NCBI GenBank assembly: GCA_943356745.1
Contig: CALRFT010000005.1
Location: 1 to 54,771 of the forward strand
Length of the DNA: 54,771 nt
Direction: 5' to 3'
DNA from: Parcubacteria group bacterium
GTDB lineage: Bacteria > Patescibacteriota > Minisyncoccia > Phycocordibacterales > CSBR16-119
Shown piece by piece: positions 8,736-43,185 of this stretch. The notes beneath the pieces are model-generated. The model had not been told where the DNA came from. It saw only the letters and a program-made list of their open reading frames with translations, and ran no database searches. How positions within the stretch are numbered: the first letter of the stretch is position 1; every line of letters begins with the position of its first letter. The translations under genes were made by a program, and so were the position numbers.

Positions 8736-10055
8736 CTATAGACTCTCTAGTACGGATTGTATTCTTTGAATTGTTTTTTCTTTTCCAATCACACTTGCAA
8801 CAAAAAATGGATTTGGAGATTTATCTTGTCCGGTAAGAGTATATCGAAGTGGCCACAGCACATCACCCTTCCCCACCTCTTCAGCATAATCCCAAACTAA
8901 ATTTTTTACAGATTCTTCAGTTTCAAAATCAGAATCTTCTGCCTTGTTACATAATTCCAAAACATGAGAAAGATGTTTTTTTGCATCTTCCAAGGTTGAT
9001 TGTTTCCAAATTATTTTTGATAGATCTGTGATTTTTGGATTTTCGATATAGTATGAAAATTCTCCAGCCTGATACATATCAACAATTTCCTTTCCATACG
9101 AAACTCGCTCCACCAAAAGAGTTCTTATCTTAAGATACAGTTCCTCAGAAATTTCTTGAGGTAGGAATTTTTTGAAATATATATCGAGCTCGCCATCTGA
9201 AAGTTTTTTCAAATGTTCTTTGTTGATCCAGAAAAGTTTTTGAATATTGTACACACTTCCCTTTTTCTGAACCTTGTCGAGAGAAAAAGCTTGTACGAGT
9301 TCTTCTTTGGTAAATATCTCTCTTTCGTCTCCCGGATTCCAGCCAATCATCGCCATGAAGTTGATGAGCGCATCAGGCAAAATTCCCATTTCTCGATACT
9401 CAGTCACAGGATAGACACTTGGATCACGTTTTGACATTTTGCCTCCTCCTTCGCTTAAAATAAGCGGAATATGAGCATATAAAGGACGGGTAAACCCAAG
9501 CGCTTCAAGAATGAGAATCTGCCGCGCTGTATTTGAAATGTGATCTTGCCCACGAATCACATGAGATACCTCTGAAAGACCATCGTCAATCACCACCGTA
9601 AGATGATACAGTGGTGAATTCATATTTCGTGCAATCACAAAATCTCCAAGCTCCTCTGTGTTGAAAGTAATATCTCCGAGAATTAGATCATGGAAAGTTA
9701 CATCAATATTTGGATTTTTGAAACGAATCACCTTTCCGCCTTCGTCTCCTGAAGATTCCTCTGCTTCATATGCATGTCCTGAGAGAATGAGTTTGTTGAT
9801 ATGTTCGATATAGATATCAGTGCGGTCACTTTGTCTATAAAAAGCATCGTGTTCTAAACCGAGCCAAGCAAGCGCCTCAAGCATGTTTTCTTCAAATTCT
9901 TTTTTACTTCTTTCCTTGTCTGTGTCTTCAGAACGTACAATAAATACACCCTCGTTTTGACGAGCAAAGAAATAGTTATATAAAGCTGTTCGAAGTCCTC
10001 CAATGTGGAATTTTCCCGTTGGAGAAGGAGCTATTCTTGTGACAATTTTTGACAT
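8736..10055 (-). CDS. gltX: glutamyl-tRNA synthetase (short form)
   Basis: RIAPSPTGKFHIGGLRTALYNY (HIGH region) and KMSKRD (KMSKS). Confidence 0.92.
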   Translation of the reverse strand: MSKIVTRIAPSPTGKFHIGGLRTALYNYFFARQNEGVFIVRSEDTDKERSKKEFEENMLEALAWLGLEHDAFYRQSDRTDIYIEHINKLILSGHAYEAEESSGDEGGKVIRFKNPNIDVTFHDLILGDITFNTEELGDFVIARNMNSPLYHLTVVIDDGLSEVSHVIRGQDHISNTARQILILEALGFTRPLYAHIPLILSEGGGKMSKRDPSVYPVTEYREMGILPDALINFMAMIGWNPGDEREIFTKEELVQAFSLDKVQKKGSVYNIQKLFWINKEHLKKLSDGELDIYFKKFLPQEISEELYLKIRTLLVERVSYGKEIVDMYQAGEFSYYIENPKITDLSKIIWKQSTLEDAKKHLSHVLELCNKAEDSDFETEESVKNLVWDYAEEVGKGDVLWPLRYTLTGQDKSPNPFFVASVIGKEKTIQRIQSVLESL

Positions 10056-15700: not shown

Positions 15701-15767
15701 GATTCCATTGTACCCTATTTTAATCATTTCCCTATATATCTTCTTTCCACACAAAGATATATTGCTA

Positions 15768-15796
15768 TTGAATATTTTCTGAAAATTACTTATAAT
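15768..15796 (+). promoter_or_regulatory. sigma70-type promoter
   Basis: TTGAAT-17-TATAAT. Confidence 0.6.
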
Positions 15797-15846
15797 ATGT
15801 TTCTAATAAAAGTTCATTTCATATAAACCATCAAAACCAACCGCCC

Positions 15847-16017
15847 ATGACCGATACAGCACAAGAAGGTGGATCAACACCTAAAAAAGATCAAGCAAAA
15901 GAACCATTTACATTAGACTCAGGCGGAGGTCCAAAAGAAGGTGCTTTCGCCGGACAAGGACATCTCAAAGATAGCCAGGGACTTCCATCAGGAGCTTGGG
16001 AGAAAACAAAAAAATAA
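15847..16017 (+). CDS. 56-aa hydrophilic, Gly/Lys/Gln-rich micro-protein
   Basis: MTDTAQEGGSTPKKDQAKEPFTLDSGGGPKEGAFAGQGHLKDSQGLPSGAWEKTKK. Has its own consensus promoter and terminator. Below the ORF-track cutoff. Confidence 0.45.
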   Translation: MTDTAQEGGSTPKKDQAKEPFTLDSGGGPKEGAFAGQGHLKDSQGLPSGAWEKTKK

Positions 16018-16020
16018 CAA

Positions 16021-16048
16021 AAAGCCGCGACGAAGTCGCGGCTTTCTT
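16021..16048 (+). terminator. intrinsic terminator
   Basis: AAAGCCGCGAC-GAA-GTCGCGGCTTT. The same hairpin recurs at 21978. Confidence 0.8.
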
Positions 16049-16064
16049 ATTACCCCAAAAAGAC

Positions 16065-16093
16065 TTGAAAAAAAATAAAATATGGGTTATATT
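16065..16093 (+). promoter_or_regulatory. sigma70-type promoter
   Basis: TTGAAA-17-TATATT. Confidence 0.6.
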
Positions 16094-16121
16094 GTATCCC
16101 TAAATAAAAGTTATTTAAAAA

Positions 16122-16271
16122 ATGGAAAAGAACGCAGAACTTTTAGAGAAGCCAAAAGAAAAAGAACAAAACACCCAGGGTCAGCAAGGGAGCCAAGGAG
16201 ATCGAGGTCAAGCTCCTGAAACAAACGCCCAAACAACTTACCCGAGATTTTCCGGGTTTGATGGTTTTTAG
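16122..16271 (+). CDS. 49-aa hydrophilic Gln/Gly-rich micro-protein
   Basis: MEKNAELLEKPKEKEQNTQGQQGSQGDRGQAPETNAQTTYPRFSGFDGF, with its own promoter and terminator. Confidence 0.45.
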   Translation: MEKNAELLEKPKEKEQNTQGQQGSQGDRGQAPETNAQTTYPRFSGFDGF

Positions 16272-16285
16272 AAAAGTTTTGTGAA

Positions 16286-16314
16286 AGCCCGTAAGTATAC
16301 CTTACGGGCTTTTT
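16286..16314 (+). terminator. intrinsic terminator
   Basis: AAGCCCGTAAG-TATAC-CTTACGGGCTT followed by TTT. Confidence 0.8.
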
Positions 16315-16444
16315 GTATGATTTTCACAAAAAGAAAAACCCCGCAGACGTTTCCGCAGGGTTTTAAGACGAAAATTAGCTAAAAAACCAAACAAATTCTA
16401 TATATGGTTTAACCTATACCCATATGAGAATTCTTACTATTATC

Positions 16445-17869
16445 TTATAATTCCTTTTTATCTATGTCAACCTTAATAGAAAGTTCTCGAAGCTGAGCGT
16501 TTCCGATTTCACTCGGTGCATCCATCATAATATCTTTTCCGTCTCGAGTCTTTGGAAAAGCAATCACCTCTCGGATATTTGGCTCGTTTTGGAGAATCAT
16601 CATCAAACGGTCAAATCCCCATGCGATTCCTCCGTGTGGTGGAGTTCCTGATGCAAAAGCCCGAAGCATGTGTCCAAAGTTTGCGTCAATTTTCTCGTCA
16701 GTGTGCCCAAGAATCTGAAGAATTGTTCGCAAGATTTTTGGATCGTGAGCTCGGATTGAACCTCCTCCGATTTCAAATCCATTCAAAGTGATGTCGTATT
16801 GAGCAGCAAGAATATCTCCGATATTTTCCTTGTTCATCAAATTTTCAATATGTTCCGGCTTGCAAAGTGAAAATGGATTGTGAGTAAATGTCCATTCACC
16901 TTGTGCTTGTGGGTCGTCTGAAGTTGCAGTTTTTTCAAAGAAAGGAAAATCTACAATCCACAAAAACGCCAAAAGGTTTGGATCATTTTTGTCTTCTCGA
17001 ATATCTGGTCGATCACTTCCATACTTTTCCATCGCATCTTTATATGACATTCTCGGGAAAGGAATCTTTTGAATTTTCTTTTCTGGATACAAAGTCTGTA
17101 CAACCTTGATCAAAAGTTCTTCATTGATTCGCATGATATCTTCTTCTGTCGCAAAAGACATTTCAAAGTCCATTTGAGTAAATTCTGGTTGCCGATCCCC
17201 TCGCCCGTCTTCATCTCGCATACATCGTGCAAATTGGAAATATCGTTCCATCCCAGAAGACATGAGAAGCTGTTTGTATTGTTGTGGTGACTGTGGAAGC
17301 GCAAAAAACTTTCCTGGGTTTGTTCGTGAAGGCACCACGAAGTCTCGAGCTCCTTCTGGAGTACTTTTTGTAAAGATTGGAGTTTCGATTTCTGTGAAGC
17401 CTTGTTCATATAAAGCGTTTCGCACAAGCTGTGCTACCTTTCCTCGCATTCGAAGGTTTGCTTGCATTCTGTCTGTTCGCAAATCCACATATCGATCTCG
17501 CAAACGCACTTCTTCGTTGATATCGATTGAGTTGTTTTCCGAAACTTCAATCGCAGGAGTTTCCGCAGTATTCAAAACCTTGATTCCTGTGATTTCAAGT
17601 TCAATATCTCCGTTCAATACTCCTTCCTTTATCATTTTGTCTGGTCGCTTGTTTACGATTCCTTTCACTTCCACCACAAATTCTGGTCGCAATGTTTTTG
17701 CAATTTCCAAAACTTCTGGCTTTCCAAACACCACTCCTTGCACCTTTCCACTCATATCTCGAAAATCAAAGAAAGCCATCTTTCCCTGATCTCGTGCAAT
17801 ATGTACCCAAGACATAATAGTTACCTCACTTCCAATATGTTGTTGTAAATCTTTAATTAATATTCGCAT
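16445..17869 (-). CDS. aspS: aspartyl-tRNA synthetase, bacterial-type core lacking the GAD insertion domain
   Basis: LPQSPQQYKQLLM, RCMRDEDGRGDRQPEFTQMDFEMSF (motif 2) and GGGSIRAH (motif 3). ...GSDRPDIREDKNDPNLLAFLWIVDFPFFE joins directly where the GAD domain normally sits. Confidence 0.92.
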   Translation of the reverse strand: MRILIKDLQQHIGSEVTIMSWVHIARDQGKMAFFDFRDMSGKVQGVVFGKPEVLEIAKTLRPEFVVEVKGIVNKRPDKMIKEGVLNGDIELEITGIKVLNTAETPAIEVSENNSIDINEEVRLRDRYVDLRTDRMQANLRMRGKVAQLVRNALYEQGFTEIETPIFTKSTPEGARDFVVPSRTNPGKFFALPQSPQQYKQLLMSSGMERYFQFARCMRDEDGRGDRQPEFTQMDFEMSFATEEDIMRINEELLIKVVQTLYPEKKIQKIPFPRMSYKDAMEKYGSDRPDIREDKNDPNLLAFLWIVDFPFFEKTATSDDPQAQGEWTFTHNPFSLCKPEHIENLMNKENIGDILAAQYDITLNGFEIGGGSIRAHDPKILRTILQILGHTDEKIDANFGHMLRAFASGTPPHGGIAWGFDRLMMILQNEPNIREVIAFPKTRDGKDIMMDAPSEIGNAQLRELSIKVDIDKKEL

Positions 17870-17870
17870 G

Positions 17871-18392
17871 TTAGTTTTTACTATAAACTTCTAAATATTT
17901 TTCTTGTGGTTTATCATTCCTCTTTAAAGAAGAAACTAATCGTTCGAGAATTTTATAATTGATACTATTTTTATCTTCAAAAAGAATTAAAGCTGATTCC
18001 AAATTTATCAAATTATTATTAAAATAATCTCTTGTGCCTCTGACATATAGATACCAGTCAGATTTATCGTCAATTTCTCGTAATATTTCCTCCGCTTTAT
18101 TGAATGATTCAGAATCAAGGAATCCTTGTCCCTTGTGAAAATAAAAAAATGCGAGAAGTTTTTTATACGATTCTAAGACTTCAGGGTTTTCAGTGGCTAG
18201 TTTTTCAACCTTATCAAAAATCTCTTTATCCTCGAGTAATTCTATATTTACCTCAGCATTTTCTGTATGGTTTCCCTCTTGATCAATTTTCAAAATAGCA
18301 TCACGAAAATCTAAAGGAGTTATTTTACCTTCTAAAAATTTTCTCTTTAAAATTTCATGTCTATTTTCTTGGGATGGTTTAAATTGTTCCAT
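17871..18392 (-). CDS. hypothetical protein, first gene of the T-box-controlled aspS operon
   Basis: ATG at 18392 (MEQFKPSQ...) directly follows the leader terminator. The stop abuts the aspS start. Confidence 0.6.
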   Translation of the reverse strand: MEQFKPSQENRHEILKRKFLEGKITPLDFRDAILKIDQEGNHTENAEVNIELLEDKEIFDKVEKLATENPEVLESYKKLLAFFYFHKGQGFLDSESFNKAEEILREIDDKSDWYLYVRGTRDYFNNNLINLESALILFEDKNSINYKILERLVSSLKRNDKPQEKYLEVYSKN

Positions 18393-18535
18393 AAAAAAAA
18401 TACCCCACAAAGACTAATAATCTTTGTGAGGACGATTTTTTGGACCGCGGTGCCACCTCACATTCCCTAGCGAGCGCTAGGACACTTTTATAGAATTTGG
18501 AGTCTCCACCCTTGTCATCGGGTTTCTTTGACTCT
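18393..18535 (-). promoter_or_regulatory. T-box riboswitch leader, probable Asp specifier
   Basis: The minus-sense RNA contains the T-box sequence AAUGUGAGGUGGCACCGCGG. The antiterminator 3' strand CCUCAC is shared with an 11-bp terminator stem (CCUCACAAAGA/UCUUUGUGGGG) followed by U8. Stem III is CCUAGC/GCUAGG. Short Stem I is GAGUC...GACUC with apical loop GAUGACAA. Confidence 0.78.
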
Positions 18536-18624
18536 TTCATTATACATGTTTTGATATTTTTTTCTATATATTGACAAATTATTAATATAATATATTATCT
18601 AACCAAATTAAAACCCGTACAAAA

Positions 18625-19006: not shown

Positions 19007-19058
19007 GTTTAAGAAACCAAAAGAGTCGCGCGAAGCGCGACTCTTTTTTCTTTATATT
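19007..19058 (+). repeat. 52-nt terminator module, copy A
   Basis: GTTTAAGAAACCAAAAGAGTCGCGCGAAGCGCGACTCTTTTTTCTTT. Near-identical copy at 19503..19554, with a compensatory stem change. Confidence 0.8.
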
Positions 19059-23103: not shown

Positions 23104-24081
23104 CTAAAGTCCCGCTGCTTTTCGTACTTCTTTCATCATTGGTTCCACCTTTTTTCGAGCCTGCTTCGCTCCTTTTACAAGAATTGCCTCTACTTTTTTA
23201 GGATGCTTTTGAAAATATTCATATTTCTCTCTCATTGGTTTGAAATATTCCAATACTTTTCGAAGAAGCTCTTTCTTTGCATCTCCGTAGCCCATTCCTC
23301 CCTTTTCCAAAAAACTTCGCATCTGTTCTTTTTCTTCTTGAGTTGCGACCAATTTGTAGATTTGATAAATCACAACCTCTTCAGGATTTTTTGGATCCGC
23401 TGGAGATTTTGAATCTGTCACAATAGACATCACTGCTTTTGAAATTTCTTCGTCTGTTCCAAAGAGTGGAATTACATTGTTGTAACTCTTTGACATTTTT
23501 TGACCGTCAATTCCTGGGACTGTTTCAACTTCTTCAACAATCAATTCTTGCGGTTCTTTAAAAATAGAAACGTTGTATGTTCGATTAAATTTTTGTCCAA
23601 TCTCTCGAGCCATTTCAACATGTTGCTTTTGATCTTTTCCTACCGGAACAACATCTGCGTTATACATGAGAATGTCAGCAGCCATGAGAAGTGGGTATGT
23701 AAATGTACCAACAGAAATTTCCTTACTTTTTGCTTCAGCATCTTTAAACGCATGAGCACGCATCAAATATGGCATGGTGGTTTGAGAAGAAAAAATCCAA
23801 GAAAGTTCTGCAAGTTCTGGGAAAGCTGATTGCTTAAACAAAACTGTTTTCTTTGGATTGAGTCCTATTGCAAGATATGCACAGATGAGATCAAAAGATG
23901 ATTTCTCCATCGCCTCTTTTTCTTGCATTGAATTTAAAGCATGGTAGTTTGCCAAAAAAACATATGATTCATATGTTCCAGAATTTTGAAGATCTACAAA
24001 CTGCTTCATTGCCCCAAAATAGTTTCCAAGATGAAGACGCCCTGTTGGTTTTACCCCTGAAAGTAAGGTTTTCTTTGTCAT
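23104..24081 (-). CDS. trpS: tryptophanyl-tRNA synthetase
   Basis: SGVKPTGRLHLGNYFGA (HIGH-type) and KMSKS motifs. 325 aa. Confidence 0.93.
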   Translation of the reverse strand: MTKKTLLSGVKPTGRLHLGNYFGAMKQFVDLQNSGTYESYVFLANYHALNSMQEKEAMEKSSFDLICAYLAIGLNPKKTVLFKQSAFPELAELSWIFSSQTTMPYLMRAHAFKDAEAKSKEISVGTFTYPLLMAADILMYNADVVPVGKDQKQHVEMAREIGQKFNRTYNVSIFKEPQELIVEEVETVPGIDGQKMSKSYNNVIPLFGTDEEISKAVMSIVTDSKSPADPKNPEEVVIYQIYKLVATQEEKEQMRSFLEKGGMGYGDAKKELLRKVLEYFKPMREKYEYFQKHPKKVEAILVKGAKQARKKVEPMMKEVRKAAGL

Positions 24082-27234: not shown

Positions 27235-28581
27235 ATGCTGAAAATCTATAATACCCTCACAAAACAAATAGAGGAATTTAAACCTATCAAACCAGGCCAT
27301 GTTGGAATGTATTCTTGTGGACCAACAGTATACAACCTCCCTCACATTGGAAACTACAGAGCCTTTTTATTCAATGACATCCTGAAAAGAAGTCTTAGCT
27401 TTTTAGGGTACAAAGTAAATCATATTATGAACATTACTGACGTGGATGACAAAACAATCCGCGACTCACAAAAAGAAGGGAAAACTCTCAAAGAATTTAC
27501 AGAATTTTACACAAAAGAATTTAACCGAGAATTGGAACTTCTTCACATTCTTCCACCAACACAAGAAGTTCTTGCAACAGACCACATCCAAGAAATGATT
27601 GATATGATCGAACTTCTCAAGGCAAAAGGTTTTGCATACGAAGGAGAAGATGGCTCAACATATTTTTCTATTTCAAAGTTTAAAGAATACGGAGCATTGT
27701 CTGGAGTCGACCTTGAAAAAAGTAATCAAACCTTGAGTCGGATTGTTTCAGATGAATACGACAAAGACAATCCTCAAGATTTTGCACTTTGGAAAACTTG
27801 GACAAGTGAAGATGGAGAAAATTACTGGGACGGAAGTCTTGGGCGTGGACGACCAGGTTGGCATATTGAGTGTTCGGCAATGTCGACAAAATATCTCGGA
27901 AATCATTTTGATATTCACACAGGTGGAATCGACCTCACTTTCCCCCACCACGAAAACGAAATCGCACAATCTGTATGTGCTCACGGAGAACCATTTGTAA
28001 ACTTCTGGCTTCACAATGAACACATTTTGATTAATGGAGAAAAAATGTCGAAGTCAAAAGGAAATCAATTTACTCTTTTTGATATTATTCAAAAAGGATA
28101 TGACCCGCTTGATCTTCGCTATTTTGTTCTCGGTGCTCATTACCGAACAAAAATAAATCTCACTTGGGAATCACTCGACGCTGCTCGAAACGCAAGAATC
28201 AAACTCACTCGTTTTGTGCAAGACACTGAACAAACAGGAGAAGTTATTGAGAAGTATGTCGAGAATTTTAAAGAAGCACTTGAACATGATCTCAACACCT
28301 CAGAAGCTCTCGCAGTAATTTGGGAAATGATAAAAGATAGCACTTTTTCAAAAGAAGACAAAAAAGAAACACTTCTTGTGCTTGATTCAGTACTTGGTTT
28401 TGGTTTTTCAAAGATATCAAAAATATCTCTTCCAGAAGAAATCAAAAACTTGATTCAAAAACGAGACGAAGCAAGAGTTCAAAAAGACTTTGGAACAAGT
28501 GACGAAATCCGCGCAAAACTCGAAAGTCTTGGTTATGATGTTCTCGATACCCAAGAAGGAACAAAGGTGTATAAAAATTAA
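27235..28581 (+). CDS. cysS: cysteinyl-tRNA synthetase
   Basis: MYSCGPTVYNLPHIGNYR (HIGH), GWHIECS, KMSKSKGN. Confidence 0.95.
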   Translation: MLKIYNTLTKQIEEFKPIKPGHVGMYSCGPTVYNLPHIGNYRAFLFNDILKRSLSFLGYKVNHIMNITDVDDKTIRDSQKEGKTLKEFTEFYTKEFNRELELLHILPPTQEVLATDHIQEMIDMIELLKAKGFAYEGEDGSTYFSISKFKEYGALSGVDLEKSNQTLSRIVSDEYDKDNPQDFALWKTWTSEDGENYWDGSLGRGRPGWHIECSAMSTKYLGNHFDIHTGGIDLTFPHHENEIAQSVCAHGEPFVNFWLHNEHILINGEKMSKSKGNQFTLFDIIQKGYDPLDLRYFVLGAHYRTKINLTWESLDAARNARIKLTRFVQDTEQTGEVIEKYVENFKEALEHDLNTSEALAVIWEMIKDSTFSKEDKKETLLVLDSVLGFGFSKISKISLPEEIKNLIQKRDEARVQKDFGTSDEIRAKLESLGYDVLDTQEGTKVYKN

Positions 28582-38844: not shown

Positions 38845-40149
38845 TTACTCTTTATTTTCTGTAGTTAAAGTGACCTTAATATCTTCATTACTATCCGGGA
38901 ATCGATTGAGCCAGAATGGGTTGATATCAAATTCAACATACTGAACACCTGGATACTTTGCAATGATATTCTGAAATTCCTTCTTTTTTTGACCCACAAG
39001 GTCAAAACTAAGAGCTTCTGTATTTACGATTGATATAATTTCAAGTACATCGTCTATCTGAAAAGCTAGATTTTCAAGAGATTCTGGATTTACAGTTTGA
39101 GATACTGGATCAACATATGAAATATTAAGGTCTCGTAGGTTTGAGATATAAGCAGTTTCTTGATCAACACCCACGATTGAAGTTTGGAGTATGTAGTTTT
39201 CGAATTCAACAGCATTAAACAGAACATTGAAAAGTGATCCAGAAAGTGTAATGAGTATAGTTCCATCTTCTTGTATAGATTCTTTAATTTCAGTATTCAT
39301 AAGAGTACTGAGATTTTCTGGAAATACTGTTTTTTCAGGAACTTGCGCTCGAGATTTTTCAAAAAGTTCACCACGAAGCTTTTCTTGTAGCTCAGCTACA
39401 ATTCGGTCTTTTTCTTCTTGAGGTACAACCATTCGTTCACCGACAAATCCCCCTTCTATTGAACCGAGAGTTTGAGCTGTAATAGTATCAAACTTTGGAC
39501 TTTTTGCTTCTTGGAAACCAATTAATTTCAAGGTTTGAACTTCTGTTTGGTTGTATGTATCCCCTGCTTTTTCGGCATAAATATCAACCTCGACTGTACC
39601 TGGAGCTGGTTTTCCATCTTTTGTTGTTTGTCCTGGAACACTCACAGCTTCTTTTGTTTTATAAATCCTTCCCTTGTCATCCACTAAACGTGTATCAATT
39701 CGAAGGGGTTGTGCCTCGGGACCATGATTATTTGAGATAACCACCCTTCCCACAGCTTGCTCTTCAACCATTTGCTTTTCTCCAGAACTTGCGGATACAC
39801 TTACAGAACCATCAACAATCATGGTTTCGAATGTGAGTTCTTTTGAGACTGACTTTTTGTATGCAATAAATCGCTCATTGAGTGGTGTGTTTTCTATTGT
39901 TGGAGTAATAACAACTTCTGCGCCTGTAAAAAATACAGACAGACCAAAAAATAATCCGAGTATGAGAACAAATGCTAAATACCACAGACCTTTTCCACCT
40001 CCACTTGGATGATTGTGTCGTGAATTGCCAAGACGACTCGGCGATGTTACCGGAGTTCTTTTGAGAGGTTTTTGAGGTTCACTGTGGCGATATTCATTAC
40101 CGTAGTGAGTCATTGGTTTTTTTATATCATGTAACTTACTGAGTGACAT
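38845..40149 (-). CDS. single-pass membrane protein with large extracytoplasmic domain, hypothetical
   Basis: Basic and His-rich N-terminus, one TM helix (LWYLAFVLILGLFFGLSVFF), then ~350 aa outside. 5-nt gap to the upstream gene. Confidence 0.65.
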   Translation of the reverse strand: MSLSKLHDIKKPMTHYGNEYRHSEPQKPLKRTPVTSPSRLGNSRHNHPSGGGKGLWYLAFVLILGLFFGLSVFFTGAEVVITPTIENTPLNERFIAYKKSVSKELTFETMIVDGSVSVSASSGEKQMVEEQAVGRVVISNNHGPEAQPLRIDTRLVDDKGRIYKTKEAVSVPGQTTKDGKPAPGTVEVDIYAEKAGDTYNQTEVQTLKLIGFQEAKSPKFDTITAQTLGSIEGGFVGERMVVPQEEKDRIVAELQEKLRGELFEKSRAQVPEKTVFPENLSTLMNTEIKESIQEDGTILITLSGSLFNVLFNAVEFENYILQTSIVGVDQETAYISNLRDLNISYVDPVSQTVNPESLENLAFQIDDVLEIISIVNTEALSFDLVGQKKKEFQNIIAKYPGVQYVEFDINPFWLNRFPDSNEDIKVTLTTENKE

Positions 40150-40154
40150 AGTGT

Positions 40155-41294
40155 TTATTGTATTACCTTTATACTTGTAAAAGCAGCGTATATCATCAAT
40201 TTAAAGTCTGGTTCTAGAATTTTTGCACTCAAGAAAGGTTGGAGTGCTTCTGCATTCATTAGTATAGCATGCAAATTTTTGTCTGATACTGAAAGATGTT
40301 TATTTCTTGGATCTTCTAATGCATTCTTAATCCAGAAAAATGTTGTTGGTTTGGAAATTACTACACAATGTTCTGGAAGTGGAATATTTTTTGTAACTTC
40401 CTGAAGAGAAGAAACAAAGTGTCTTCTCCACTCTTCTTGAACATTTGATACTGTTTTCCGAAGACCCAAAGATGCGTTCTGGTGCATAGTTCCTTGATTG
40501 AGAGTTTTAAGCTCAGAAAGAATAATATCTGGATGAATATTTTGTTCCCCTGCTTTTGAGAAAATGAGATGTTCACCACTCAAGATAACCTCTCCGTGAA
40601 CAAGCGAACCTTGATTGATGATTGAAACTTCACTATACAAACCTTCAATCGAAACTAAAACAAAATTATCAAGATATTGAAACGCATCTCGACTCACCAC
40701 GGACTGCACCAGCATTGAAGTATGGAAATAGATATCTTTTGATGTATGTCTTTCTATTGTATTTTGAAGTATTTGTTTAATATCTTTCCCCACAAGACTC
40801 ACGTAACTTGAAACTTCCACTCGTCTTGTATATTCTTTTTTGAAATCATGAATCTCGTATCCATTAATTCCAATATGAAGAATATTTTTTTCAAGAATCT
40901 CAAAATCTCCTTGATCTTTGTAGGTATTATAAAAATCTTGAACAGTATCTTTGAGAATCTTTTTTACATCTCTTTCCCGAAATACAAACGGAGCTTCTTC
41001 GTCTCGAATATAAGTATCCATGTGAGATATGTACCACGGAGAAGAAAGCACACAGAGAACCTGATCTATTTTTGTTGGTTTTTTTTGAATAAGTGCACTA
41101 ATTGCAAGATCAAGAGTCTTACTAATGTTTTGAATTGAATAGTGGTCACCCTGAACAGTTTGAATATGTTGTGCGATGATATATGGTTTTTGATGATCTG
41201 AAACATTTACAAAACAGGTTCGAATATGCGAACTTTCAACACTTATCACAAGATGGTTTTGCGATGTTGGTTTTTTTGAACCAAAGAAAAACAT
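40155..41294 (-). CDS. hypothetical protein, possibly a divergent actin-fold (PilM/FtsA-like) protein
   Basis: N-terminus MFFFGSKK...LVISVESSHIR resembles the PilM/FtsA phosphate-1 region, but the DxG is replaced. 379 aa. Weak call. Confidence 0.4.
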   Translation of the reverse strand: MFFFGSKKPTSQNHLVISVESSHIRTCFVNVSDHQKPYIIAQHIQTVQGDHYSIQNISKTLDLAISALIQKKPTKIDQVLCVLSSPWYISHMDTYIRDEEAPFVFRERDVKKILKDTVQDFYNTYKDQGDFEILEKNILHIGINGYEIHDFKKEYTRRVEVSSYVSLVGKDIKQILQNTIERHTSKDIYFHTSMLVQSVVSRDAFQYLDNFVLVSIEGLYSEVSIINQGSLVHGEVILSGEHLIFSKAGEQNIHPDIILSELKTLNQGTMHQNASLGLRKTVSNVQEEWRRHFVSSLQEVTKNIPLPEHCVVISKPTTFFWIKNALEDPRNKHLSVSDKNLHAILMNAEALQPFLSAKILEPDFKLMIYAAFTSIKVIQ

Positions 41295-41347: not shown

Positions 41348-43117
41348 TTATTCCAATACTGCTTTGATTCTTCGAATACCAGCACTTGAAGCTTCTTCTT
41401 TTTGGATTTTAAATGTTCCGAGTGTGTTTGTATTTTCCACGTGTGGACCACCGCAAATTTCGAGTGAGTACATTTCATCTCCATTTCCGATTTGATACAA
41501 GGTTACAGTTTCTCCGTACTTGTCACCAAAGAGTCCAAGAGCACCCTTGTTTCGAGCGTCTTCGAGCGGAACTTCTTGGAAAGAAATCGGAAGACTATCT
41601 TTGATTTTCTCATTTACAATTTGTTCTACTCGTTTGATTTCTTCTGGTGTCATTTTCTCATTGTGAGAAAAATCAAATCGAAGTCGCTCTGGTGTGATGT
41701 TTGATCCTTTTTGGAATACATGATTTCCCAAAACATCTCGAAGTGCCTGATGCAAAAGATGAGTTGCTGTGTGGTATTTTACTTCCATGTCTGAATGACC
41801 AGCAAGACCTCCTTTGAATTTTTGTTCTGCGCCGAGTCGTGATTTATCTTGGTGTTCTTTCATCTTTGAATGGAAATCATTTTCATCAATACTTTCGCCT
41901 CGAGAAAATGCAAGCTCTTTTACCATCTCAAAAGGAAAACCATATGTTGTGAAAAGAATAAAAGCATCTCGCTCACCTTTTTCAAATTCCTTCAACCCAG
42001 AAATCAAAGTCTTTTCAAACTTTGCAATTTCATCTTGAAACACAACAACGCTTTGAGCTTGCATTGTTCCATACACAGAATCATATTGCTTTTGAATCAA
42101 AACAAAGATATCTGCCAATTTTTCAAATGGAATTTCAATTTTTTGTGCGTTCACCATCGCTCGACGAATAATTCTTCGCAAAATATATCCTCGGTCTTTA
42201 TTACTTGGAACAACACCATCAGAAATCAAAAACATTGAGGCTTTGATGTGGTCAGCAATAATTCTTGCACTTATTCCTTGGTACATGAGTGCATCTTTTT
42301 TAATTGATTCCAAAATATCTGAAAACAAATCTGTTTCAAACACATTTGTTTTTCCTTGCACCACCATTGTCACACGTTCAAGTCCTGCACCTGTGTCTAC
42401 GTTTTGTTTTGGAAGTGGACCAACAACCTTTCCAGCTTTTTGCTCAAAAGCCATAAATACATCATTCCAAATCTCAACAACTTTTTGTTCGTCGTCTGCT
42501 TTCAAAAATTCTTCATGAGTAAGTCCGTCAACAAGAGTTCCTGTGACATCATAAAACATTTCTGTACTTGGACCCGCCGGAGAATCTGGTCCCGCTGTCC
42601 ACCAATTACTTTTTGAAGAAAGATAGAAAATTCTTTTTTCAGGATCGAGTCCGTGTTCGTTAAAGATAGCTCGCCAAATACCCGCTGCTTCTTCATCTCG
42701 AGCAACATTTTCATTCCCCGCAAAAACTGTTACATAGAGTCTATTGATATCAAGTCCGAGTCCTTCATCCTTTGAGGTAAGAAATTCAAAACTCCATTTG
42801 ATTGCATCTTCTTTAAAGTATGTTCCAAGAGACCAGTTTCCAAGCATTTCAAAAAATGTGAGATGAGTATTGTCACCCACTTCTTCAATGTCATTTGTTC
42901 GCACGCATTTTTGTGAACTTGCCAGCTTTCCACCTCCTGGATGTTCTTCACCAAGAAGGTATGGAATAAGAGGTTGCATTCCTGCAGTATTAAAAAGTGT
43001 TGCGTTTGTTTGTCCTTTTTCATCGGTAGTTACCAAAGAAGCCGAAGGAAGCACTGTGTGTTCCCGCTTTTCAAAAAAGTCCAAAAACCGCTTTCGTATT
43101 TCATTACTTGTTAGCAT
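41348..43117 (-). CDS. alaS: alanyl-tRNA synthetase, short form ending after the editing domain
   Basis: MLTSNEIRKRFLDFFEKREH..., editing-domain HTATHLLH and CGGPHV motifs. Start reset to the ATG at 43117. The 14 codons upstream belong to the repeat/terminator element. Confidence 0.92.
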   Translation of the reverse strand: MLTSNEIRKRFLDFFEKREHTVLPSASLVTTDEKGQTNATLFNTAGMQPLIPYLLGEEHPGGGKLASSQKCVRTNDIEEVGDNTHLTFFEMLGNWSLGTYFKEDAIKWSFEFLTSKDEGLGLDINRLYVTVFAGNENVARDEEAAGIWRAIFNEHGLDPEKRIFYLSSKSNWWTAGPDSPAGPSTEMFYDVTGTLVDGLTHEEFLKADDEQKVVEIWNDVFMAFEQKAGKVVGPLPKQNVDTGAGLERVTMVVQGKTNVFETDLFSDILESIKKDALMYQGISARIIADHIKASMFLISDGVVPSNKDRGYILRRIIRRAMVNAQKIEIPFEKLADIFVLIQKQYDSVYGTMQAQSVVVFQDEIAKFEKTLISGLKEFEKGERDAFILFTTYGFPFEMVKELAFSRGESIDENDFHSKMKEHQDKSRLGAEQKFKGGLAGHSDMEVKYHTATHLLHQALRDVLGNHVFQKGSNITPERLRFDFSHNEKMTPEEIKRVEQIVNEKIKDSLPISFQEVPLEDARNKGALGLFGDKYGETVTLYQIGNGDEMYSLEICGGPHVENTNTLGTFKIQKEEASSAGIRRIKAVLE

Positions 43118-43126
43118 GGGACTAGT

Positions 43127-43185
43127 ATACAAAATTTCCCTCTTTCCGACCAGAGCCACAAAAAATCCCCTTGTGAGGGGATTTT
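43127..43185 (-). repeat. 59-nt direct repeat, left copy (terminator hairpin + promoter-proximal segment)
   Basis: ATACAAAATTTCCCTCTTTCCGACCAGAGCCACAAAAAATCCCCT-TGTG-AGGGGATTTT. 45 + 10 nt are identical to 45234..45292; only the 4-nt loop differs. Confidence 0.9.
43156..43185 (-). terminator. intrinsic terminator after the repeat-protein gene
   Basis: Minus-sense AAAAUCCCCU-CACA-AGGGGAUUUU followed by UUGUGG. Confidence 0.7.

Follow-up and report, generated by a model that had tools for sequence, protein, structure and literature searches.

A tRNA-Asp T-box leader that combines a short Stem I with an intrinsic terminator and lacks Stem II, upstream of aspS in a Parcubacteria group bacterium

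A leader on the minus strand of contig CALRFT010000005.1 (assembly GCA_943356745.1), from a Parcubacteria group bacterium, is a tRNA-Asp T-box in an ultra-small member of the Candidate Phyla Radiation (CPR), and it has a new architecture in which a short Stem I is combined with a transcription terminator and a Stem II is lacking. It lies within the first 54,771 nucleotides (nt) of the contig, and this whole stretch is referred to throughout as the window. The leader occupies positions 18532-18393, about 140 nt, between a promoter-like site and an ATG at 18392. With a probability of about 0.85, as judged from sequence comparison, it is a functional riboswitch that senses the charging of tRNA-Asp and controls transcription read-through into an operon. 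The first gene of the controlled transcript is an open reading frame (ORF) for a 173-amino-acid (aa) protein (17871-18392, minus strand), the AUG of which stands immediately 3' of the U tract of the terminator; the second is aspS (16445-17869, minus strand), the AUG of which follows 1 nt past the stop codon of the first gene and which encodes a bacterial-type aspartyl-tRNA synthetase (AspRS) of 474 aa. This operon had been proposed in an earlier note that was made from the sequence alone, and the identity of its second gene was borne out by a match of 595 bits to NF001750 (cut-off 443 bits), in two matching stretches on the 590-position model, alongside matches to PF00152 and PF01336. The nearest relatives of this AspRS are proteins of Paceibacteria, Nomurabacteria and Parcubacteria metagenome-assembled genomes, at no more than 92% identity; the organism is accordingly Paceibacteria/Nomurabacteria-like, in keeping with the description of the genome in that note as CPR-like. 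T-boxes serve as a model system for RNA–RNA recognition in gene control, and the finding places this mode of regulation in the CPR; no paper linking T-boxes with Patescibacteria, CPR or Parcubacteria was encountered in the literature searched, a search that was not exhaustive.

Anatomy of the leader

The T-box sequence AAUGUGAGGUGGCACCGCGG is located at 18464-18445 (here and below on the minus strand), and its core GGTGGNACCRCG occurs a single time in the 54.8-kb window, where 0.15 chance matches would be expected even with one mismatch allowed. It forms part of the antiterminator, or T-box element (18425-18462), which the alignment to the Rfam T-box family RF00230 draws as 7 + 4 bp around a 7-nt bulge. 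Helix A1 pairs UGUGAGG (18462-18456) with CCUCACA (18431-18425), helix A2 pairs GCGG (18448-18445) with UCGU (18435-18432), and the bulge UGGCACC (18455-18449) begins with the UGGC (18455-18452) that would pair with the GCCA 3' end of the tRNA. CCUCACA is both the 3' strand of the antiterminator and the 5' strand of an intrinsic terminator (18393-18431), so that the two structures are mutually exclusive. In a terminator scan the latter was found as a hairpin (18431-18403) followed by U18402, A18401 and a run of eight U residues (18400-18393). The 11-bp terminator with U8 described in the earlier note corresponds to this hairpin when its loop is drawn with 7 nt, whilst the scan counts 13 pairs including G-U, and a UA precedes the U8. 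The terminator form, which is also the minimum-free-energy fold, is predicted to be the more stable of the two (-16.4 kcal/mol versus -9.5 kcal/mol for the antiterminator). Stem III (UCCUAGC-GCUC-GCUAGGG, 18482-18465) is seen in the folds and aligns to RF00230 with high posterior probability; it is directly preceded by the purine motif AAGUG (18487-18483) and followed by AA (18464-18463), and in relatives a hairpin of differing sequence stands at its position. The arrangement of RRRNG, Stem III and AA, a described T-box feature (PMC7778990), is therefore present in the window leader. All of the elements picked out beforehand, namely the T-box sequence, Stem III, the overlap of antiterminator with terminator and the U8 tract, were located on the minus strand where they had been placed.

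The 5' half of the leader is occupied by Stem I (18500-18534, GAGUC...GACUC; 31-35 nt), which was seen both in the single-sequence fold and in an RNAalifold consensus of nine close leaders. Its basal (C) helix consists of GUC (18532-18530) with GAC (18504-18502) plus two lineage-specific pairs. Above it follow a bulge AAA (18529-18527), tandem G.A/A.G pairs formed by G18526 and A18525 with G18506 and A18505, the pair A18524.G18507 beyond these, and an upper helix of 4 bp (ACCC, 18523-18520, with GGGU, 18511-18508). The upper helix is closed by the 8-nt apical specifier loop GAUGACAA (18519-18512), in which U18517 stands before the specifier GAC (18516-18514) and the conserved purine A18513 after it. 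No distal platform was found in either the single fold or the RNAalifold consensus; nothing of Stem I extends beyond the specifier loop, and its base lies directly next to the promoter. The short, platform-less Stem I of about 35 nt that had been proposed was thus recovered, with the qualification that the estimated transcription start leaves GUC/GAC as its conserved base. All leaders share one Stem I plan, in which a basal helix of 3 bp is followed by a bulge of 3 nt, tandem G.A/A.G pairs, a non-Watson–Crick pair, a helix of 3-5 bp and a loop of 6-8 nt. The 3-nt bulge and the tandem G.A/A.G pairs (GA...GA) are invariant in 25 + 24 leaders and are flanked on both sides by covarying helices, and Stem I, which carries this signature (the GA motif), is predicted to fold as a kink-turn (K-turn) hairpin.

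The specifier triplet is GAC in 43, GAU in five and the Asn codon AAC in two of 50 parsed distinct leaders, and the context U-NNN-A is found in 46 of the 50; many relatives carry a 7-nt loop of the form C/U-U-GAC-A-A/C. The earlier note had remarked that the window loop holds both Asp codons followed by a purine. GAC has proved to be the conserved specifier with the purine next to it, whereas the GAU of the window loop is incidental: in L127 and L131, the closest relatives, the loop is AAUGACAx, in which GAC is kept and GAU is gone, and GAU was accordingly rejected as a second specifier. A specifier within the K-turn internal loop (AAA, AAG or GAA) was also considered and rejected, since it is this stretch that forms the conserved K-turn bulge in every leader, irrespective of variation elsewhere. 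Across about 50 leaders the triplet GAC, GAU or AAC is matched by an AspRS gene downstream wherever the sequence permits a check.

Between Stem I and Stem III, in place of a Stem II or IIA-B domain, there is an A/U-rich single-stranded linker (CAAAUUCUAUAAAAGUG, 18483-18499) of about 17-19 nt (18501/18499-18483), which ends in the purine motif. No helix was predicted in the linker (18499-18483) in single-sequence folds or in the nine-leader RNAalifold alignment. On the 5' side, a promoter-like site is present at 18539-18566 on the minus strand, consisting of a -35-like TAGAAA (18566-18561), a 16-nt spacer and a -10 box TATAAT (18544-18539), with 10 of 12 matches in a consensus scan. The -10 box lies 6 nt 5' of Stem I, and, of 51 distinct related leaders, 47 have a TAnnnT hexamer whose last base lies 5-9 nt (with a mode of 6) 5' of the basal helix, often with TTGACA about 17 nt further upstream. 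This fixed distance implies that the RNA begins at the foot of Stem I and that there is no room for a longer stem. From the promoter spacing, transcription is likely to start at about 18533-18532, which would leave only GUC/GAC as the conserved basal helix.

A scan of the window against Rfam at gathering thresholds, 93 bits for RF00230, returned no match. In a permissive search RF00230 scored 40.2 bits (E = 1.2e-7 on 401 nt, 1.7e-5 on the whole window) and was the best match of any Rfam family in the window, the next best having E = 0.013. The 3' half of the alignment (Stem III, T-box sequence and antiterminator) has high posterior probability and the 5' half is poor; a Stem II as well as a long Stem I are part of the RF00230 model. 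A score under the threshold had been named in the earlier note as a result that would speak against a T-box. The score does lie under it and the match is nevertheless significant, and since all nine relatives that match RF00230 score only 31-59 bits, the threshold is too strict a test here and threshold-based catalogues would miss the clade. The T-box database TBDB was built with RF00230, and searches with its short-Stem-I model were confined to Actinobacteria and to those class I hits whose Stem I is truncated.

Conservation and covariation among related leaders

The leader was compared with the aspS loci of 80 representative related species, about 76 of which had usable upstream sequence, and with metagenome contigs. 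A T-box core was found upstream of aspS on the same strand in 31 of the 80 species. Metagenome contigs were scanned with a pattern of the Stem I frame and the T-box core in which the loop was left free, a pattern tuned to the aspS family; of the 45 matches, 38 are leaders of the same kind, and the other seven (the L082 group and L103) fall within coding regions and match by chance. Only Asp leaders were recovered when other amino-acid specificities on the same short scaffold were sought in this specifier-free scan, which, being tuned to aspS, other families could escape. Some 60 distinct leaders from Paceibacteria genomes and metagenomes share a common design, with compensatory changes in every helix.

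Covariation among the related aspS leaders supports Stem I, the antiterminator and the terminator as they had been drawn from the single sequence. For the antiterminator, 92.9% of the cells are paired in 31 leaders, as against 40-54% in slid controls, and 27 cells show double changes, as against 6.4 in shuffles. The upper helix of Stem I was assessed in the metagenome set, which was not selected on that helix: 70 of 72 cells are paired, compared with 52.6 +/- 2.4 in shuffles, and none of 2000 shuffles reaches 70. One set of Stem I counts came from sequences that had been pre-selected for pairing; the metagenome, nine-leader and RNAalifold results for the upper helix are unaffected by this. Among the nine close leaders both Stem I helices are 100% paired, with six of seven pairs changed on both sides, and the terminator is likewise 100% paired, with three pairs changed on both sides. 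Columns 130 and 131, which belong to the strand shared by antiterminator and terminator, change along with both of their partners. The RNAalifold consensus of these nine leaders independently recovered both Stem I and the terminator in this form and predicted no structure in the linker. The UGGC of the bulge is present in all 53 parsed leaders (UGGU occurs once, in L017), and a downstream T-run is present in 39 of the 53. In L013 (2878-2997) and L052 (2682-2990) the antiterminator is not followed by a U-tract terminator; in the former the ATG of aspS stands within 44 nt of the antiterminator, and in the latter there is a GC hairpin without a U tract. These two leaders may be translational variants of the same family.

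The enzyme downstream of the leader is not always of the same type. In about 12 metagenome leaders (L090, L122, L083, L096, L104, L121 and six others) the gene is that of a non-orthologous, non-discriminating aspartate-tRNA(Asn) ligase of the archaeal type; against NF003483 (cut-off 353 bits) the enzyme of L090 scores 474 bits and that of L122 scores 488 bits, and the remaining archaeal-type calls derive from about 35% identity in tblastn. The leader has stayed with the AspRS function while the type of enzyme differs.

The region between Stem I and the T-box core varies considerably. In the distant relatives L041, L052, L055, L069 and L078 it holds a Stem II that has an AGUA/GAA S-turn, together with a IIA/B-like element, and only a plain hairpin stands in its place in L005, L007, L009, L011, L012, L017 and L019. 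An A/U-rich linker of about 17-21 nt replaces it in the window and in L003, L004, L006, L008, L013 and L021; a linker instead of Stem II is also found in L121, in L097/L122 and in the four closest relatives, L127, L128, L130 and L131. In L028, L035, L056, L083, L089, L094 and L099 a conventional Stem III seems to be missing as well. The relatives therefore appear to trace a stepwise reduction from Stem II through a plain hairpin to a linker, with Stem III apparently lost in some lineages, and the series from larger to smaller leaders amounts to a natural deletion series made by evolution. In the group that lacks Stem III (for example L083, 2243-2340), Stem I and the T-box core are separated by 26-29 purine-rich nt, which include a conserved GAGACCAAAGUAGGGUGG and form no convincing hairpin; if real, this group would represent a T-box of about 100 nt without Stem III.

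Mechanism, known classes and rival explanations

Transcription would start at the foot of Stem I, the K-turn hairpin of which would display U-GAC-A in an apical loop much like an anticodon loop, where it would pair with the GUC anticodon of tRNA-Asp. The linker of about 17-19 nt would then lead to a conventional discriminator, in which the purine motif, Stem III and AA precede the antiterminator and its UGGCACC bulge. The GCCA 3' end of an uncharged tRNA would pair with UGGC and stabilise the otherwise weaker antiterminator, and RNA polymerase would read through; with the tRNA charged or absent, the stronger terminator would form and the transcript would end at the U8 tract after about 135-140 nt. 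Since there is neither a distal platform nor a Stem II, the tRNA would be held at two points only, the anticodon and the 3' end. A translational effect may be a secondary role of the leader.

Four classes of T-box have been listed (PMC10482949). Class I (tyrS type) combines a long, platform-bearing Stem I with a Stem II (PMC10482949), both of which are absent from the window leader. In class II (glyQS type, from Bacillus and relatives; glycine only) the Stem I is long and a linker replaces Stem II (PMC10482949; PMC7583486); its distal double T-loop platform, which stacks on the tRNA elbow, is reported to be essential, and its specifier lies in an internal loop (PMC10482949; PMC7583486). With this class the window leader shares the lack of Stem II, a single-stranded linker from the K-turn foot to Stem III and the antiterminator, and control by transcription termination; it differs in its Stem I of 31-35 nt that ends at the specifier loop and in its Asp codon. 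Class III (actinobacterial ileS type) has a short Stem I with the specifier in a 5-6-nt apical loop and requires Stem II, and class IV has a Stem I of intermediate length (PMC10482949).

With class III the window leader shares a short Stem I of about 30-35 nt that has a basal K-turn, no platform and a specifier with a 3' purine in a small apical loop, and also a canonical discriminator with a UGGN bulge. Leaders of this class, from Nocardia farcinica and Mycobacterium tuberculosis, were reportedly treated by Sherwood in 2015. The Stem II with its AGUA/GAA S-turn is a further likeness, shared with the distant relatives L041, L055, L069 and L078. The differences are that class III requires Stem II (S-turn and IIA/B pseudoknot), a domain that is absent from 7-8 close relatives and from the window, which has a plain linker; that it acts in translation by sequestering the ribosome-binding site, where the window has an intrinsic terminator with U8; and that it is known for Ile in Actinobacteria, rather than for Asp in Patescibacteria. 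The size of the apical loop differs too: the published definition gives 5-6 nt, whereas the window has 8 nt and its relatives have 6-8 nt. Anatomy and covariation thus agree with the earlier comparison to an ultrashort actinobacterial Stem I coupled to a terminator; the absence of Stem II, which had gone unremarked, is an additional finding. As a class III Stem I is here combined with a class II linker and a terminator, the window leader fits none of the four published classes.

It is tentatively suggested, at odds a little short of even, that the family forms a fifth class: a co-transcriptional sensor of about 140 nt with a two-point hold on the tRNA, reached by stepwise reduction and representing a minimal working T-box, in which a kissing interaction of up to 5 bp could offset the lost modules. 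The U-GAC-A loop is the exact complement of U33-GUC-A37, and on paper up to five pairs with tRNA-Asp could form. By analogy only, the 7-nt loop of many relatives can be read as a tRNA anticodon loop, with a pyrimidine at 32, U33, the triplet and a purine at 37 (the window loop has 8 nt), so that it would meet the anticodon loop of tRNA-Asp head-on. Complexes between the anticodon loops of tRNAs with complementary anticodons were reportedly studied by Grosjean, Eisinger and Crothers. A conserved, terminator-coupled T-box family without platform and Stem II offers a direct test of the published rules on how tRNA is gripped, and the smallest natural scaffold on offer for the study or engineering of tRNA sensing.

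Several points weigh against a functional tRNA-Asp switch of this kind. The RF00230 score is far under the gathering score, the basal helix of the K-turn has only 3 bp and lies at the extreme 5' end, and the positions of start and termination are sequence predictions. Bacterial tRNA-Asp has the anticodon GUC and G73, and it is from this general knowledge that the fit of UGGC to G73 derives; no tRNA-Asp gene was found in the window, in 112-131 related loci or in the 7.6 kb past the high end of the window. Transcriptional T-boxes have been said to need the platform of a long Stem I, and those with a short Stem I to need Stem II, for tRNA binding (PMC7583486; PMC10482949; PMC10651847), and in a leader without either, binding might be too weak or too slow for action during transcription.

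This last difficulty leads to the proposal that the T-box needs a helper in place of the platform and Stem II, be it a K-turn-binding protein of the L7Ae family, another RNA-binding protein, a slow or pausing polymerase, or a kissing interaction of more than 3 bp. Stem I alone is reported to bind tRNA weakly (PMC10651847), the platform or Stem II is reported as essential in reviews and single-molecule studies, the K-turn is strictly conserved despite a basal helix of 3 bp, and the complementarity of U-GAC-A to the anticodon loop would be consistent with an extended kissing contact; but no candidate helper gene is linked to the leader, the neighbours of which vary by lineage, and the sequence data do not require one. 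Such a helper is possible, though on balance doubted. That the leader is instead a decaying relic of a larger T-box, now a constitutive attenuator or without function, could be read from the reduction series among relatives and from the 49 of 80 species that have no T-box at aspS (a few of them owing to contig ends). It is very improbable, however, given how the leader has been kept. Its identity to the closest relatives (88-94%) exceeds that of the aspS coding sequence (88%) and far exceeds that of the 100 nt upstream (49-67%), compensatory changes maintain its helices, and close relatives show no variation in the specifier, the UGGC or the GA.AG pairs; a strong terminator that could not be escaped would also be harmful before an essential gene. 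Third codon positions of the 173-aa ORF are 65.5% identical for L127 and 86.2% for L130/L131.

Two further alternatives concern the extent of the leader and its ligand. If the transcript began farther upstream, the sequence 5' of 18535 might form a conventional long Stem I or an equivalent of Stem II, and the RF00230 alignment does extend to 18612. The end of the alignment towards 18612 has low posterior probability, however, and the 90 nt concerned are A/T-rich, contain two back-to-back promoter-like sites and show the low upstream identity given above, whilst the -10 box recurs at its fixed distance from Stem I in nearly all leaders; an upstream start seems highly unlikely. It could also be supposed that the ligand is tRNA-Asn and that the switch tunes a non-discriminating AspRS to the demand for Asn. 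An AAC specifier occurs in four or five related leaders (L019, L021, L069), twelve metagenome leaders precede the archaeal-type aspartate-tRNA(Asn) ligase, and tRNA-Asp and tRNA-Asn both normally carry G73. Yet the triplet of the window is GAC, with which the anticodon GUU would need a G-U pair at the first codon position, and 48 of 50 parsed leaders have GAC or GAU, which makes tRNA-Asn barely credible as the ligand here. A co-transcriptional switch that responds to tRNA-Asp remains the preferred interpretation.

The variable gene slot and the surroundings of the operon

The 173-aa protein has no Pfam, NCBIfam or PADLOC match. Only three homologues were found in 5.8 billion proteins (92, 74 and 59% identity), all of them in the same slot, and none in the 80 related loci. 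Its predicted structure is all-helical, with 10 helices (pLDDT 88), and its TPR-like matches are weak (E >= 0.17). The slot between terminator and aspS is empty in 16 loci, and in others (L002-L012, L019, L032, L069, L073, L121, L122 and L128) it holds genes that differ by lineage and are mutually unrelated, including those for an Mrr restriction endonuclease (L005), HEPN-like proteins below the Pfam threshold (L002, L003), a serine hydrolase (L004), a HIT protein (L019), small membrane proteins and a NUDIX protein (L128). In this respect the slot looks like a recurrent insertion site. With few homologues, unrelated genes in its place and only weak TPR-like matches, the 173-aa protein was rejected as a conserved partner of the switch; its gene is best regarded as cargo of restricted lineage distribution that the T-box has come to control, and not as a conserved member of a regulon.

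Four other aminoacyl-tRNA synthetase genes lie in the window: gltX for GluRS (8736-10055, minus strand), a Trp/Tyr-type class I gene (23104-24081, minus strand), cysS for CysRS (27235-28581, plus strand) and a short alaS for an AlaRS of 603 aa (41348-43159, minus strand). A T-box was sought at each of the four and none was found, so that the switch is specific to aspS within this stretch of the genome. ARAGORN reported no tRNA gene of any kind either in the 54.8-kb window or over the next 7.6 kb past its high end, which is sparse for a contig of about 0.5 Mb, and the tRNA search as a whole yielded one tRNA-Ala and one odd tRNA only. At L019 (5857-5931, minus strand) ARAGORN called a tRNA-like gene to which no amino acid was assigned and the anticodon of which was given as four bases (tata).

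The 690 nt between aspS and scpA (15755-16444) contain no ORF of at least 50 aa on the gene strand, and an ORF of 49 aa was called on the opposite strand; the same gap measures only 164 nt in the relative L130. A weak Rfam match to the rimP leader in this gap (32.8 bits, E = 0.17) is probably due to chance. No Pfam family matches either of two neighbouring large ORFs on the minus strand (38845-40149, 434 aa, and 40155-41294, 379 aa). At 19019-19047 there is a GC-rich palindrome of 13 bp, perfect and flanked by a T run on either side, which resembles an intrinsic terminator that serves convergent genes in both directions. Five terminator-like sites were found in this region where 0.8 would be expected, an enrichment which suggests that the genome uses intrinsic termination.

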